64,000 nt of DNA from Escherichia coli (GCF_003334305.1 NZ_QOWS01000014.1); one strand, 5' to 3'. Counted from the stretch's first letter, positions 17,481 to 23,573 are shown. Notes: generated from the letters alone by a model not told the origin. A program made the numbers and translations.

Positions 17481-18932
17481 TCAACTAAACAACATCGCGA
17501 TTTTGCCGAGAGCATAACCTATAACCAGCACCGTTAAACTGATTTTGATAATGCTGGTAATGCTCTGTGGTTTTTCACCCTCATCATTTTTTTCTTCATG
17601 GTTTTCAGGTGTTGGCTCATCGACATCTTCATCCTCCGGCTCGAGTTTTACTTTCGTCAACAGCATCCGGGTGATAATGGCCTCTAATGGATGAGCATCT
17701 CCGCCTTCCAGCCTTGTATTAAGACGGGCCAGCATCTCTTGTTTCGGAAACGCTTCAAGTACTACCTGTTCCGCTACCCGATACAAATCCAGTAACGGTG
17801 AATCTTCTTCTGTCTCGCTACCGACTCTCGATTTCCACCACGCCCATGCTTTGCGTTTGAAGAATAACGACTCAATAAACGATTGACCTAACGGCGATAA
17901 TTTTCCGCTATGTAAAATTTCCGCCCATAACAGCCGCGTCCGGGCGCTCTCACCAGGAACATATTTCAGCGGTTGACCTTGCGCATCTACCATGCTCCGC
18001 GCTTCGATAACCATCACTAATAACGCGAAATAATCCGGGCAATGACGCTTGCTCCACTGCAACAACAAATTATCAGCTTGTGTAGATGGGTAACTTTCCC
18101 GGTACGCGCAGAGATCGGCAAGCAGGCTTTCCCCCTCGCCGCAGTACAACCTTTGAGCACACAAGTAATATCGGGCATCTTCGCTTTCTGGTTCTTCCAT
18201 TTGCCACTGTTTGGCTACAGGAATGAGTTCCGCCATACCTGTTTGCACCGAGCTGTACCAGCGCAACAGTTTGCGATGTAACTTTGCATCATCAGGAATG
18301 AACCACGGACCTTCCATCGCCAAAAACGCAGTGACGTAGTCAGGATGGTAACGGCAGCAACGTTCCAGCGCGAAGTAATACTCAACAGTCTGGTTCTGCA
18401 ACGCAACGGGATATTCCAGAAGGCTAAGGAAATCGAAACAATCACCAGCCTGAATGGCCTCAAGAAAAGCCTCCCTTTCTTCCTCATCCATTCCTTCGCT
18501 GTCATTAAACGAATGCCAGTTCAAACGCTCTGCCAGCAAAGAAGCACAATTTAATGAAAGATATCGCGCTTCTATAGCGATTGCACACAGCGGCCAGCGT
18601 AATTGATCGACATCCTCCATGTTCCAGGTATTTAATTGCTGAATAAATTTCTGCCAGGCGGAGGGCTGAAAACGATCACTTTCTGAATCCAGTAATGTCC
18701 TGAATGCACGCAGTATTTCATGTTCAGCGGCGGCATCTTTTTCTTCATCATCTGCTTCCTCGACAGGATTTACCGCCAGTCGCAGCGCCTCTTCATAGGC
18801 CTGGCGTAATGCTTTAAACCCCTGCGGATCGGTTTCGGGATGACATAACGGTAAGCGAGCAAGATAAGCCTGGCGGATAATGTCTATTTGCGTCGTGCTT
18901 TCAATTTCGAGGATTTGCCAACATGTTTTCAT
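17481..18932 (-). CDS. djlC: J-domain-like membrane-anchored co-chaperone of HscC
   Basis: 483 aa; N-terminal J-like region and C-terminal hydrophobic anchor; paralog of the ORF at 20301..21728. Confidence 0.9.
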
Positions 18933-19636
18933 AGGTCGCTCACATCCTTAAGCGTTACCGGGCATTCAGGCTGGACAGTTAATGGCTGCCAGGGAAGCGT
19001 GGCATAGAAACGATCGCTTCCCGCTGCCAGCTCTTCGAACATCCGACTCCCGGCGCTATCGTATTTGTACAGGGTTAGCGCCTCGCGTAGCGAAGTGTTG
19101 TCTTCGCACTGAGAAGATTGCCAGTAGAGACGTCCTAACGAATAGGCGGAAAAATAGTGCATCCAGCTGTGATAGTAATGGTGAGCTCGTACATAGACGC
19201 ACGATTGCAGCCATAAACTCTCTTCTTCCGTCAGCCAGTTGTTGAGCACACCGACCCGTGACAGAAACCCCATTCGAACATAATCCCAGGCTTTGATTCC
19301 CCCTTCTCCACAGCACATAGCGGTTTGGGCAACGAATTGGGTATAAATCAACCCTCTCTCCGAGCCACCAGCAATTAATGCTTTCCACTCTTCAGGGGAA
19401 GAGCGATGCCATGTCAGATATAAGCCAGCTAAATCATTGGCATGACCATCATCAGTCATCTGATAAATAGTCTGAATTAAATCATCACGATTATTTATTC
19501 CCCAGGATGATGAGAGATCGAATTCTTTTATCCCGGTATACATTTTTGGCGAGTCATGCGCGGGTTTGCAACCCTGATTAAGTATTTCCATGGGCGCAGA
19601 AAGCGCAAAAAGAAGATATTGTTCTTCCTTATTCAT
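18929..19636 (-). CDS. ybeU: DUF1266-family protein
   Basis: 235 aa; ATGA overlap with djlC; paralog of ybeR. Confidence 0.85.
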
Positions 19637-19736
19637 TTGTTAATAATCCCTTAAGTGCATTAACTGACTACTTTTTATTATTGATGAGTATAAACTTGAC
19701 GCTTTCAAAATAAAAAGAAAATCGAAGCATTCACAT

Positions 19737-20291
19737 ATGAATAAAAAATTAATGTATATATTCGCAATATTTATAGTTGCAGCAATTACCTGTATTAGCC
19801 AACCCAAGAAAACAACGTTGCGTGATAAAGCCATGGTGAATTATGCCTTTGATTATTTAAGCTCACCGGGCAGTCTACCGTTTACCACGGCGGCCACGGA
19901 GCTTTCCGCGATTCATGGTCACTCAACGTCGCAATATCGCCTTGGAGAATTTTATCTTCATGGTAGCGACGGTAAACCACTGGATTATACACAGGCGAGA
20001 TACTGGTATGAGCAATCAGCAGAACAGGAAAATCCGCGCGCACAAAGCAAACTGGGGTGGATCTACCTCAAAGGTCTGGGGGTCAAACCCGACACCCGTA
20101 AAGCAATTCTCTGGTATAAGGAAGCAGCTGAACAAGGGTATGCTCATGCTCAATATACTTTAGGTTTGATCTACAGAAATGGCTCAGGTATTAATGTTAA
20201 CCATTATGAATCTCAAAAATGGTTAAAACTGGCCGCCAAACAACATTACAAAAATGCGGAAAGATTACTTGCCGGGCTTCCCGCACATTAA
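19737..20291 (+). CDS. ybeT: Sel1-repeat protein with N-terminal signal/anchor
   Basis: 184 aa; N-terminal hydrophobic segment; repeated Sel1-like motifs ([30 protein letters not shown]). Confidence 0.85.
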
Positions 20292-21728: not shown

Positions 21729-22432
21729 AGGTCGCTCATATCCTTAAGCGTTTCCGGGCATGCAGAATAGTAAGCCAATGGTTGCCAGGACAAGGTAGGG
21801 TAATACGCATCATCACTGGCAAATAATTGATAAAACATATCATTGCCGGAATCGTCGTATTCTTTACGCGCTAAGAATTCGCGTAATAACTGCAGATGAT
21901 CATCTTCGGGAGACTGCCAATATTGCCGACCAAAGGTATAACCGGCAAAGTATTGCCGCCAGTTACGATAATAACGTAGAGCCCGTAGATGAATGCGCGA
22001 CTGGATCCATAGACTTTCTTCTTCGCTCAACCAGTTATTAAGTACGCCCATTCGGCTTAAAAAACCCATCCGGACATAATCCCAGGCTTTAATTCCTCCC
22101 TCACCACAGCATTCGGCGGTGCTGGCGACAAATTGCGCATAAGCCTGACCTTGCTCATTTAGTTCAGCAAGATAGTCACGCCATTCACATGGCGAATAAC
22201 GAAACCAGCGGTGATAAAACCCTGCCAACCGAGCGGCATGACCGTTATCGATCATTCGGTGAATTGTGCGCAGCAGGTCATCACGGGCATCAATTCCCCA
22301 GGAGGAAGAAAGGTCAAAAAAGCATGTACCTAAATACATTTTGGGTGATGAATGCGAAGGTAAACAGCATTCATTGCGTATTTCCATCGGAGTGGAAAGT
22401 GCAAACAATATTTTTTGCGACTCCATGTCCAT
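21725..22432 (-). CDS. ybeR: DUF1266-family protein
   Basis: 235 aa; ATGA overlap with djlB; shares the block [20 protein letters not shown] with ybeU. Confidence 0.85.
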
Positions 22433-22595
22433 ATAATTTATCCTTAAATATTCATTAAATGAATATTAGCCGCATTGCGAGGCTCGTTTATTTATACTTT
22501 TCTGACGCGACATAATACGCATAAAATAAGGCTTACGCAAAAATGGAACACATAAAAATATAATATGTTTTATCTGCAACCATAAGGAAATGATA

Positions 22596-23573
22596 ATGAT
22601 TTTCACGTCAAGTTGCTGCGATAATTTATCAATAGATGAGATTATCGAACGTGCTGAAAAAGGCGATTGCGAGGCTCAATATATTGTTGGGTTTTATTAT
22701 AATCGCGATAGCGCAATTGATTCTCCGGACGACGAAAAAGCCTTTTACTGGCTGAAGCTGTCCGCTGAGCAAGGTCATTGTGAAGCACAGTATTCCTTAG
22801 GGCAAAAGTATACCGAGGATAAAAGCCGTCATAAAGATAATGAGCAAGCCATCTTCTGGCTGAAAAAAGCTGCCCTACAAGGCCATACTTTCGCTTCCAA
22901 CGCCCTTGGCTGGACACTGGATCGTGGAGAAGCCCCCAATTATAAAGAAGCGGTTGTCTGGTATCAGATAGCCGCGGAGAGCGGAATGTCTTATGCGCAA
23001 AATAATCTTGGGTGGATGTACAGAAATGGCAACGGAGTCGCAAAAGACTATGCGCTGGCATTTTTCTGGTACAAACAAGCTGCATTACAAGGCCATAGTG
23101 ACGCGCAAAACAATCTGGCCGATCTTTATGAAGACGGAAAAGGCGTTGCTCAAAACAAGACACTCGCCGCATTCTGGTATTTGAAAAGCGCACAGCAGGG
23201 TAATCGGCACGCCCAGTTTCAAATTGCATGGGATTATAACGCTGGCGAAGGGGTGGACCAGGACTATAAGCAAGCGATGTACTGGTATCTGAAGGCTGCC
23301 GCTCAGGAAAGCGTCGGCGCTTACGTCAACATCGGTTATATGTATAAACACGGACAAGGCGTTGAGAAAGATTATCAGGCTGCCTTTGAATGGTTTACGA
23401 AAGCCGCTGAATGCAATGACGCCACTGCCTGGTATAACCTGGCCATTATGTATCACTACGGAGAAGGAAGACCTGTCGATCTCCGACAGGCTCTCGACCT
23501 GTATCGTAAAGTTCAGTCATCCGGAACCAGAGATGTCAGTCAGGAAATTCGTGAGACTGAAGATTTACTGTAG
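22596..23573 (+). CDS. ybeQ: Sel1-repeat protein
   Basis: Multiple Sel1-like repeats; the ATG at 22596 has better Shine-Dalgarno spacing (325 aa) than the first ATG at 22590. Confidence 0.85.
   Translation: MIFTSSCCDNLSIDEIIERAEKGDCEAQYIVGFYYNRDSAIDSPDDEKAFYWLKLSAEQGHCEAQYSLGQKYTEDKSRHKDNEQAIFWLKKAALQGHTFASNALGWTLDRGEAPNYKEAVVWYQIAAESGMSYAQNNLGWMYRNGNGVAKDYALAFFWYKQAALQGHSDAQNNLADLYEDGKGVAQNKTLAAFWYLKSAQQGNRHAQFQIAWDYNAGEGVDQDYKQAMYWYLKAAAQESVGAYVNIGYMYKHGQGVEKDYQAAFEWFTKAAECNDATAWYNLAIMYHYGEGRPVDLRQALDLYRKVQSSGTRDVSQEIRETEDLL

Follow-up and report, generated by a model that had tools for sequence, protein, structure and literature searches.

The hscC locus of Escherichia coli carries an anciently duplicated DUF1266/J-like protein cassette encoding candidate partners of a specialised Hsp70

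This study analyzed a 64,000-nucleotide stretch of Escherichia coli DNA (GCF_003334305.1, NZ_QOWS01000014.1; hereafter the window), focusing on the block that encodes the specialised Hsp70 HscC, two J-like co-chaperones (DjlC and DjlB), two DUF1266 proteins (YbeU and YbeR), and two Sel1-repeat proteins (YbeT and YbeQ). Judged from sequence comparison, the locus is an ancient tandem duplication of a two-gene cassette, each copy of which encodes a DUF1266 protein and a membrane-anchored J-like co-chaperone carrying the tripeptide HPE. We consider it probable, at roughly 60%, that HscC and the two anciently duplicated, coupled DUF1266/HPE-J cassettes form a joint chaperone machine with the divergent Sel1 genes. 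The hscC-djlC-djlB chaperone locus is already annotated and published E. coli DNA, and the paralogy of DjlB and DjlC, their HPE motif, their tail anchoring, and their partnership with HscC are already published. The linkage of DUF1266 and HPE-type J proteins with an HscC-type Hsp70 across gamma-proteobacteria appears, from the loci compared here, to be new.

The window carries the gene order gltL-rihA-hscC-djlC-ybeU/ybeT-djlB-ybeR/ybeQ-ybeL-leuS of the E. coli chromosome. The region 15700-24200 matched E. coli chromosomes at 96-100% identity, with strain A7 being the best match (100%), and RefSeq names the genes across it hscC, djlC, ybeU, ybeT, djlB, ybeR, ybeQ, and ybeL. All six open reading frames (ORFs) of an earlier sequence-based description of this DNA (the original prediction) were found where it had placed them. 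In the first module, ybeU (18929-19636, minus strand, 235 residues) is followed by djlC (17481-18932, minus strand, 483 residues), and in the second, ybeR (21725-22432, minus strand, 235 residues) is followed by the djlC paralogue djlB (20301-21728, minus strand, 475 residues). At both junctions, the stop codon of the DUF1266 gene overlaps the start codon of the J-like gene in an ATGA, as predicted. The amino-acid identity was 51% between DjlC and DjlB and 59% between YbeU and YbeR. An independent direct-repeat search revealed three repeat families of 171-232 nt, with 71-77% DNA identity, all spaced 2796 nt apart. The ybeU-djlC and ybeR-djlB operons are thus collinear paralogues in a constant 2796-nt register, as expected of a tandem segmental duplication, and pairwise protein and DNA alignments bear out the predicted paralogy of the two modules. 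The aligned operons exhibited 54.5% DNA identity overall and approximately 60% within coding regions.

The original prediction had counted the Sel1 genes as the third member of a repeated three-gene module; the repeat unit instead comprises two genes, those encoding the DUF1266 and Djl proteins. YbeT and YbeQ are 33-37% identical solely as Sel1 repeats, with at least five different repeat registers aligning, and the DNA matches between ybeT and ybeQ are spaced 2526, 2847, and 111 nt apart, that is, not 2796 nt. No ybeT separates the two DUF1266+Djl pairs of Salmonella and Citrobacter, which lie directly next to each other (11 and 72 nt apart), and a single YbeQ-like gene, encoding 327-332 residues, is divergent from the distal pair. 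Relatives of ybeT turned up in Escherichia-like sequences only. To judge from these sequences, the similarity between ybeT and ybeQ is generic Sel1-repeat likeness, with no evidence of co-duplication.

Synonymous divergence and orthology place the duplication far back. Among 358 aligned identical, degenerate residues of the paralogues, codon identity was 44%, and the number of synonymous substitutions per site (dS) was not computable by the Nei-Gojobori method, the synonymous sites being saturated. In Salmonella (L004) and Citrobacter enshiensis (L008), too, the interval between gltL/rihA and ybeL, which is the same chromosomal site, contains two DUF1266+Djl pairs. Identity matrices grouped E. 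coli YbeU-DjlC with the hscC-proximal pair, and YbeR-DjlB with the distal pair, of both genera. Because each E. coli copy has its own orthologue there and dS is saturated, the duplication is older than the divergence of Escherichia, Salmonella, and Citrobacter. The ratio of nonsynonymous to synonymous substitution rates (dN/dS) was approximately 0.09-0.14 in the module genes, and both cassette copies are under purifying selection.

The junctions between the DUF1266 and J-like genes (junction 1, 18926-18965; junction 2, 21722-21761; both on the minus strand) were identical at 38 of 40 positions. This is the highest 40-nt sliding window of the aligned operons (95%, against 54.5% overall); other peaks, in the YbeU core and in djl, reached 88%. 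The predicted near-identical stretch is real and elevated above the rest of the genes, although it lies approximately 5 nt from where it had been placed. A recent duplication, or ongoing gene conversion between the modules, was originally suggested to keep the junctions near-identical, an explanation that we now consider highly improbable. It draws some strength from the finding that 5 of 45 positions distinguish the two E. coli junctions, as against 7-11 between either one and its Salmonella or Citrobacter orthologue, and from the operon's longest stretch of identical codons, 10 in a row, which spans the junction. This run is modestly significant, exceeding the 95th percentile of shuffles (9) and falling below the 99th (11). 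Against these points stand the low DNA identity of the paralogues, the codon identity and saturated dS reported above, and the separate orthologues of each copy in other genera. Moreover, the 46 sites at which the two E. coli paralogues share a base that differs from all four copies in Salmonella and Citrobacter are evenly spread over 2229 aligned positions; just two or three of them fall in the junction windows, the same as in several other windows. Gene conversion at the junctions was therefore rejected, the quartet-style site-pattern scan having given no local excess. Finally, the same junction nucleotides are kept across species, which conversion within a genome cannot explain.

A nucleotide-level constraint for translational coupling is the best reading of the junction identity that the alignments offer, because the conserved peptide ends and a Shine-Dalgarno sequence in a predicted hairpin loop fit such coupling. 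Junction 1 comprises the 3' end of ybeU, the Shine-Dalgarno-like sequence AAGGA, the ATGA overlap, and the 5' end of djlC, with the predicted hairpin at 18937-18954; junction 2 is its counterpart, with the predicted hairpin at 21733-21750. The alignment fold of eight enterobacterial junctions revealed a 6-bp hairpin (CGCUUA/UGAGCG) whose loop bears the Shine-Dalgarno core AGGA. Five of the six stem pairs were identical in all eight sequences and the sixth in seven, and the residues encoded by the loop vary (KD, KG, QE, KE) whereas the AGGA core stays. Across the six E. coli, Salmonella, and Citrobacter copies, the same codon was used at just 20 of 182 invariant residues (11%). The stem codons ACG, CTT, and AGC, which are four- and sixfold degenerate, account for 3 of these 20 (hypergeometric P of approximately 0.01, for a junction zone defined post hoc). 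The junction hairpin is put forward as a hypothesis. A stable RNA structure or an RNA gene at the junction was also considered and dropped; the small invariant hairpin alone is kept, as a putative coupling element. In the distant loci examined in which the J gene directly follows the DUF1266 gene, all junctions exhibited a 4- or 1-nt start/stop overlap and an upstream GGAG-type Shine-Dalgarno sequence.

We analyzed the association of DUF1266 with J proteins in other gamma-proteobacteria. A DUF1266 profile retrieved 1485 cluster representatives at E<=0.001, and the stand-alone relatives fetched comprised approximately 220-270 residues and were 22-45% identical to YbeU. Loci were fetched by exact-protein look-ups, and the DUF1266 genes examined came from eleven locus types, namely E. 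coli, L007, Salmonella, Citrobacter, Leminorella, L009/L010, L011, L012, L014, L015, and L016. All 16 DUF1266 genes in these locus types adjoin a gene for an HPE-type J protein, with the qualification that one copy in L011 lacks HPE and that an Hsp70 gene intervenes in L015. A start/stop overlap of 4 or 1 nt couples the J gene to the DUF1266 gene in all cases but L015 (15 of 16). An Hsp70 that is 47-52% identical to HscC was present in 9 of the 11 locus types; these neighbouring Hsp70s were 34-39% identical to a manually entered DnaK sequence.

The arrangement of the partners varies among these loci. The DUF1266 gene is paired with a J protein of 906 residues in Leminorella (L006), 915 residues in L009/L010, 948 residues in L012, and 932 residues in L016. 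An HscC-type Hsp70 is the next gene in L009/L010 and is convergent in both L012 and L016. In L014, the DUF1266 gene is paired with a J protein of more than 676 residues, where the contig ends, and in L015 it is followed by an HscC-type Hsp70 and then by the start of a Djl-type J protein. The metagenomic locus L011 (2597-11119) carries two DUF1266+J pairs with an HscC-type Hsp70 between them, an arrangement that, to judge from its sequence, is an independent duplication of the cassette. The J proteins of L011 have Sel1 repeats fused to them and no membrane segment, and one copy has lost HPE. More generally, the J proteins vary at the C-terminus, where some have a single tail anchor and others have two or three membrane-like segments or else Sel1 repeats. 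Because Sel1 and J domains are fused in L011, the Sel1 partner appears to be tied to the J-protein system. Elsewhere, some distant DUF1266 domains are themselves fused to TPR repeats.

These comparisons bear on the possibility that the DUF1266 and Sel1 genes are merely co-located with hscC and have an unrelated function, or that the whole block is a silenced, decaying remnant. Some observations are in keeping with this possibility: HscC, DjlB, and DjlC are below the detection limit of proteomics (PMC8215388), the block is silenced by H-NS (PMC5797941, PMC7582179), and it is lost or partly deleted in approximately 32% of complete E. coli genomes, with module 2 intact in 3713 of 5426 and with insertion sequence (IS) elements interrupting it in places. 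Nevertheless, the adjacency and overlap of the DUF1266 and J genes are kept at 22-40% DUF1266 identity, which chance co-location would not survive. All ORFs of the block are intact at a dN/dS of approximately 0.1, and the Sel1-J fusion in L011 likewise speaks against unrelated function. We regard mere co-location or decay as unlikely, and a joint machine as better supported.

The proteins of the block were compared with family models. The hscC gene (15751-17421, plus strand) encodes 556 residues and is named "molecular chaperone HscC" in RefSeq. HscC scored 385 against the NCBIfam DnaK model (cut-off 648) and 379 against the HscA model (cut-off 709); it thus displays the features of the HscC type, namely an Hsp70 fold, no DnaK or HscA equivalog assignment, and a length of approximately 556-562 residues. 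It is 82% identical to its Salmonella and Citrobacter orthologues. DjlC comprises a J-like domain with the HPE motif, a helical body, an acidic linker, and a C-terminal tail anchor. It matched Pfam DnaJ weakly (E=0.036, residues 4-47), with some homologues carrying a precomputed PF00226 match, and it also matched PF27158 (DjlB_C_2nd). In DjlC and DjlB, HPE, at residue 31, stands in place of the canonical HPD tripeptide, and HPE was also found, at residue 30-32, in all 12 further relatives examined, bar one degenerate copy. HPE is the sole HPD variant reported to be tolerated, and the replacement of HPD by HPE was noted in a 2026 review (PMC13254874). Hydropathy analysis placed a single hydrophobic helix at the extreme C-terminus of each protein (approximately residues 457-475 of 483 in DjlC and 446-464 of 475 in DjlB) and no other hydrophobic segment, in agreement with the predicted tail anchors. 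DjlB and DjlC are described as tail-anchored in the inner membrane (PMC8215388), and membrane insertion of DjlC is a result of Peschke 2018, as reviewed in PMC8215388.

YbeU matched DUF1266 (PF06889) at E=3.9e-44 over model positions 2-175 of 175, and YbeR aligned to YbeU with all invariant DUF1266 residues kept. The YbeU model is a compact all-alpha domain (predicted local distance difference test score, pLDDT, of 94; predicted template modelling score, pTM, of 0.91). A sequence search of PDB chains with YbeU/DUF1266 returned no match, and nearly all entries that a Foldseek search of AFDB50 retrieved with the YbeU model contain DUF1266; they come from Enterobacterales, Pseudomonas-like genera, Vibrio, Shewanella, and some Firmicutes. 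YbeU and DjlC were also modelled together as a YbeU-(G4S)6-DjlC fusion, by AlphaFold 2 with a partly paired alignment, which gave a pLDDT of 84.7 and a pTM of 0.76 over 748 residues. Disorder in this model was confined to the linker, one short loop, and the acidic segment preceding the anchor. Because a pTM of 0.76 exceeds the contribution of a lone rigid DjlC, the value weakly suggests that YbeU docks on DjlC. The DjlC body exhibited a weak resemblance to TPR/solenoid proteins (E>0.01). Two database records touch on these proteins. UniProt A0A2X3M2D5, an E. coli record of 627 residues named "Hsc56 co-chaperone of HscC", looks like a fused YbeU-DjlC ORF call, and A0A077ZGN2 of the nematode Trichuris trichiura shares 95% of 153 aligned residues with YbeU, probably through bacterial contamination of the assembly.

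The Sel1 proteins differ in their likely location. The ybeQ gene (22590-23573, plus strand) encodes 327 residues with approximately eight Sel1 repeats; seven matched PF08238 at E<=0.001 and one weakly, spanning residues 28-307. Hydropathy analysis of YbeQ revealed no signal peptide, hydrophobic N-terminus, or membrane-like segment, and YbeQ looks cytoplasmic from its sequence. The ybeT gene (19737-20291, plus strand) encodes 184 residues; YbeT has a hydrophobic N-terminal stretch (residues 1-19), a precomputed PF08238 match, and partial matches to NCBIfam Sel1-family models. The predicted secretion or anchoring of the Sel1 proteins is thus in keeping with the N-terminus of YbeT, but not with YbeQ. 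The Sel1-repeat proteins MerG, MotX, ExoR, and AlgK, whose NCBIfam models were matched, share the same repeat scaffold as YbeQ and YbeT, and HcpA-C, LpnE, and EnhC form a further bacterial Sel1-repeat group. Characterised bacterial Sel1 members are mostly periplasmic or secreted, whereas YbeQ has no export signal and the L011 repeats are fused to a cytoplasmic J protein.

The published HscC-DjlB/DjlC system is encoded by this very locus and is characterised by independence of HscC from a nucleotide exchange factor, stimulation of its ATPase by DjlC, the HPE motif, tail anchors, and Cd2+ and ultraviolet sensitivity (PMC8215388, PMC13254874). DjlC stimulates the HscC ATPase (Kluck et al. 2002, as reviewed in PMC8215388), and DjlB is assumed to do so, whereas DnaJ, CbpA, and HscB do not; DjlB and DjlC are class C J proteins that are approximately 50% identical; and Cd2+ sensitivity follows from the loss of hscC, or of djlB and djlC together (PMC8215388). 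The predicted role of the locus in membrane-localised Hsp70 targeting is a reading that the literature already favours. The clients of HscC are unknown (PMC8215388), more than 20 years after its biochemical description, and of the three Hsp70s in E. coli it is the one about which least is understood. The DUF1266 and Sel1 genes, the coupling junction, the age of the duplication, and the distribution within E. coli are not covered in the published account; two reviews of the HscC system (PMC8215388, PMC13254874) make no mention of ybeU, ybeR, ybeT, ybeQ, or DUF1266, and DUF1266 occurred in a single paper of the searched literature, as a gene label only.

The following mechanism is proposed for the joint machine. 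Coupled synthesis would yield an approximately 1:1 complex of DUF1266 and Djl proteins at the cytoplasmic face of the inner membrane, where the tail-anchored J protein would activate HscC. The DUF1266 protein may serve either as a substrate-selecting adaptor or as a dedicated client that the J protein presents to HscC, as with IscU, HscB, and HscA. The Sel1 proteins could be further scaffolds or clients of the HscC machine, and the two paralogous pairs would provide two parallel HscC channels with distinct specificity. More tentatively, and at less than even odds, HscC may belong to more than a two-part Hsp70/J system and be the ATPase of a conserved three- or four-part machine of gamma-proteobacteria, in which DUF1266, always produced along with its own HPE-type J protein, would be the dedicated client or substrate receptor and Sel1 a further module, free or fused to the J protein, with E. 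coli having two anciently diverged DUF1266/J channels that supply a single HscC. If the partnership is true, it would offer a first functional context for DUF1266, a Pfam domain that has neither an assigned function nor a solved structure, and YbeU, YbeR (and YbeQ) would be candidate missing partners or clients of HscC-DjlC/DjlB, which provides a testable lead.

Known systems resemble this proposal in part. Like the hscC locus, HscA-HscB-IscU combines a specialised Hsp70, an exclusive J protein, and a small conserved protein in one locus. It differs in that IscU is an experimentally proven client with an LPPVK binding motif, no equivalent of which is known for DUF1266, and in that HscB, unlike the Djl proteins, is neither membrane-anchored nor duplicated. 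DjlA resembles the Djl proteins in being a class C J protein that is held at the inner membrane and directs Hsp70 activity there; however, it has an N-terminal anchor, a C-terminal J domain with the canonical HPD, DnaK as its partner, and no coupled DUF1266 protein.

Several observations count against a joint machine. The link of YbeU, YbeR, YbeT, and YbeQ to HscC is putative, and the complex itself is inferred from gene coupling and a pTM value. The look-ups that make up the locus survey are a small, non-random sample, and the DUF1266+J pair of Leminorella has no HscC-type Hsp70 within 10 kb. HscC is reported to bind sigma-70 (PMC3861889), for which the proposed partners are not required. The junction hairpin displayed no covariation, all of its pairs being invariant, and single-sequence folds of the junction region were no better than those of shuffles (z of approximately 0). 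Distant DUF1266 domains are fused to Cu_amine_oxidN1, SLH, or LRR domains, in architectures of an extracellular type, or to TPR modules, and have no J or Hsp70 context. Because these distant domains lack such a context, the association is a property of the gamma-proteobacterial stand-alone clade and not of DUF1266 generally. In L018 (2-1962), a distant gene encoding a 218-residue DUF1266 protein is preceded, and overlapped by 1 nt, by a gene for a TPR-like protein that is cut by the contig end; the first residues of this protein (PGDEEGFKNI...ELENAY) faintly resemble the segment that follows HPE in the Djl J domain, and the gene order would be reversed.

Base composition was analyzed across the block. 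The GC content was 46.8% in the block and 50.7% and 52.3% in the flanks, and at third codon positions the GC content of the modules (0.38-0.48) was below that of the flanking genes (0.51-0.61). The AT-richness that had been predicted is real but mild. According to published regulon data, the ybeT and ybeU-djlC transcripts rise under SlyA overexpression and both belong to H-NS regulon sets (PMC5797941, Table 2); ybeU-djlC is also listed in the LeuO regulon set (PMC5797941), and a DUF1266 gene was strongly de-repressed in the hns mutant of strain 042 (PMC7582179).

We counted how often the block occurs in 5426 complete E. coli genomes. Any match to hscC was found in 4410 genomes, and at least 80% coverage in 4377. 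The corresponding counts were 4407 and 4260 for module 1 (17481-20291) and 4448 and 3713 for module 2 (20301-23573), so that far more genomes have a damaged module 2 than a damaged module 1 (3713 versus 4260 with the module intact). The whole block is absent, with clean boundaries, from approximately 1000 genomes (approximately 19%). In strain CU532-9, homology to the window breaks off at 15670 and picks up again at 23642, a 39-nt hairpin lying between the two; a BLAST comparison of this type of empty site (L003) with the window delimits the present/absent segment, the whole hscC-to-ybeQ block, as 15671-23641. At the empty site itself (L003:5958-6001), the 39-nt hairpin is GC-rich (GCCGGATG...CATCCGGC), lies between rihA and ybeL, and does not occur in the window. 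Because the block is syntenic in three genera, its absence in E. coli is most simply explained by loss, which is more likely than non-acquisition.

Deviant composition and presence/absence polymorphism are island features, and the original prediction had regarded the AT-richness as consistent with an acquired island. This holds for E. coli in that the block is AT-rich and variably present, but the block occupies the same site in three genera and is thus old there. No mobility signature was found: the ORFs of the block include no integrase, there are no flanking direct repeats, and no tRNA gene was noted, although no tRNA scan was made. A related explanation treats the block as a conflict or defence island gained by horizontal transfer, in which the Hsp70, J, DUF1266, and Sel1 proteins act as an anti-phage or toxin-related system. 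The AT-rich composition, the H-NS, LeuO, and SlyA links of ybeT and ybeU-djlC, the presence/absence pattern with its clean boundaries, and the reported toxicity of HscC overexpression (PMC3861889) would all suit such a system. So would the far faster divergence of the module proteins than of the flanks: between E. coli and Salmonella, protein identity was 91-95% in the flanks, 82% for HscC, and 47-64% for the Djl, DUF1266, and Sel1 proteins. In contrast, PADLOC gave no significant match for any protein, with only sub-threshold, repeat-driven hits to PtuA and LeoA (E>=2e-4), and a scan of 2.9 million viral contigs found no relative. Effector-like domains were likewise not found, the whole-gene dN/dS of approximately 0.1 displays no sign of diversifying selection, and a literature search combining HscC with phage defence found nothing. 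The lack of mobility signatures and the shared site in three genera also speak against this explanation, and we consider a defence island quite improbable. None of the three rivals (recent duplication or conversion, a defence island, and a silent remnant) is as well supported as a joint chaperone machine.

The accessory genes evolve fast yet are under purifying selection (dN/dS of approximately 0.1). Between E. coli and Salmonella, dS was higher inside the block (approximately 2.8 to saturated) than in the flanks (0.9-1.4). Older alleles, or an exchange of the block among lineages, could account for this uneven divergence.

Regarding the remaining features, the ybeU/ybeT intergenic region (19637-19736; GC approximately 0.39) is divergent and AT-rich and presumably holds the promoters of both transcripts, and the ybeR/ybeQ region (22433-22589; GC approximately 0.37) is likewise divergent and AT-rich. 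Alignment of the operons detected no similarity between these two regions. A promoter/terminator consensus scan returned fewer matches than in shuffles and was uninformative, and an Rfam search of 14000-25000 matched no family. Individual lineages and records exhibited further variation of the block. Damage to module 2 was seen in L001 (6103-6568) and L002 (4878-6781). In one lineage, an internal deletion from djlB to ybeQ has left two remnants, and in another, an IS5-bounded deletion reaches lnt. Single strains carry IS1 in hscC or ISVsa5 in djlB. Matches to the block were also found on plasmid-labelled E. coli records, in four places with the whole query, two with hscC, and two with module 2. 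In Salmonella, an additional ORF of 412 residues (L004:13951-15189, minus strand), which has no Pfam match and is absent from the window and from Citrobacter L008, lies between rihA and hscC.

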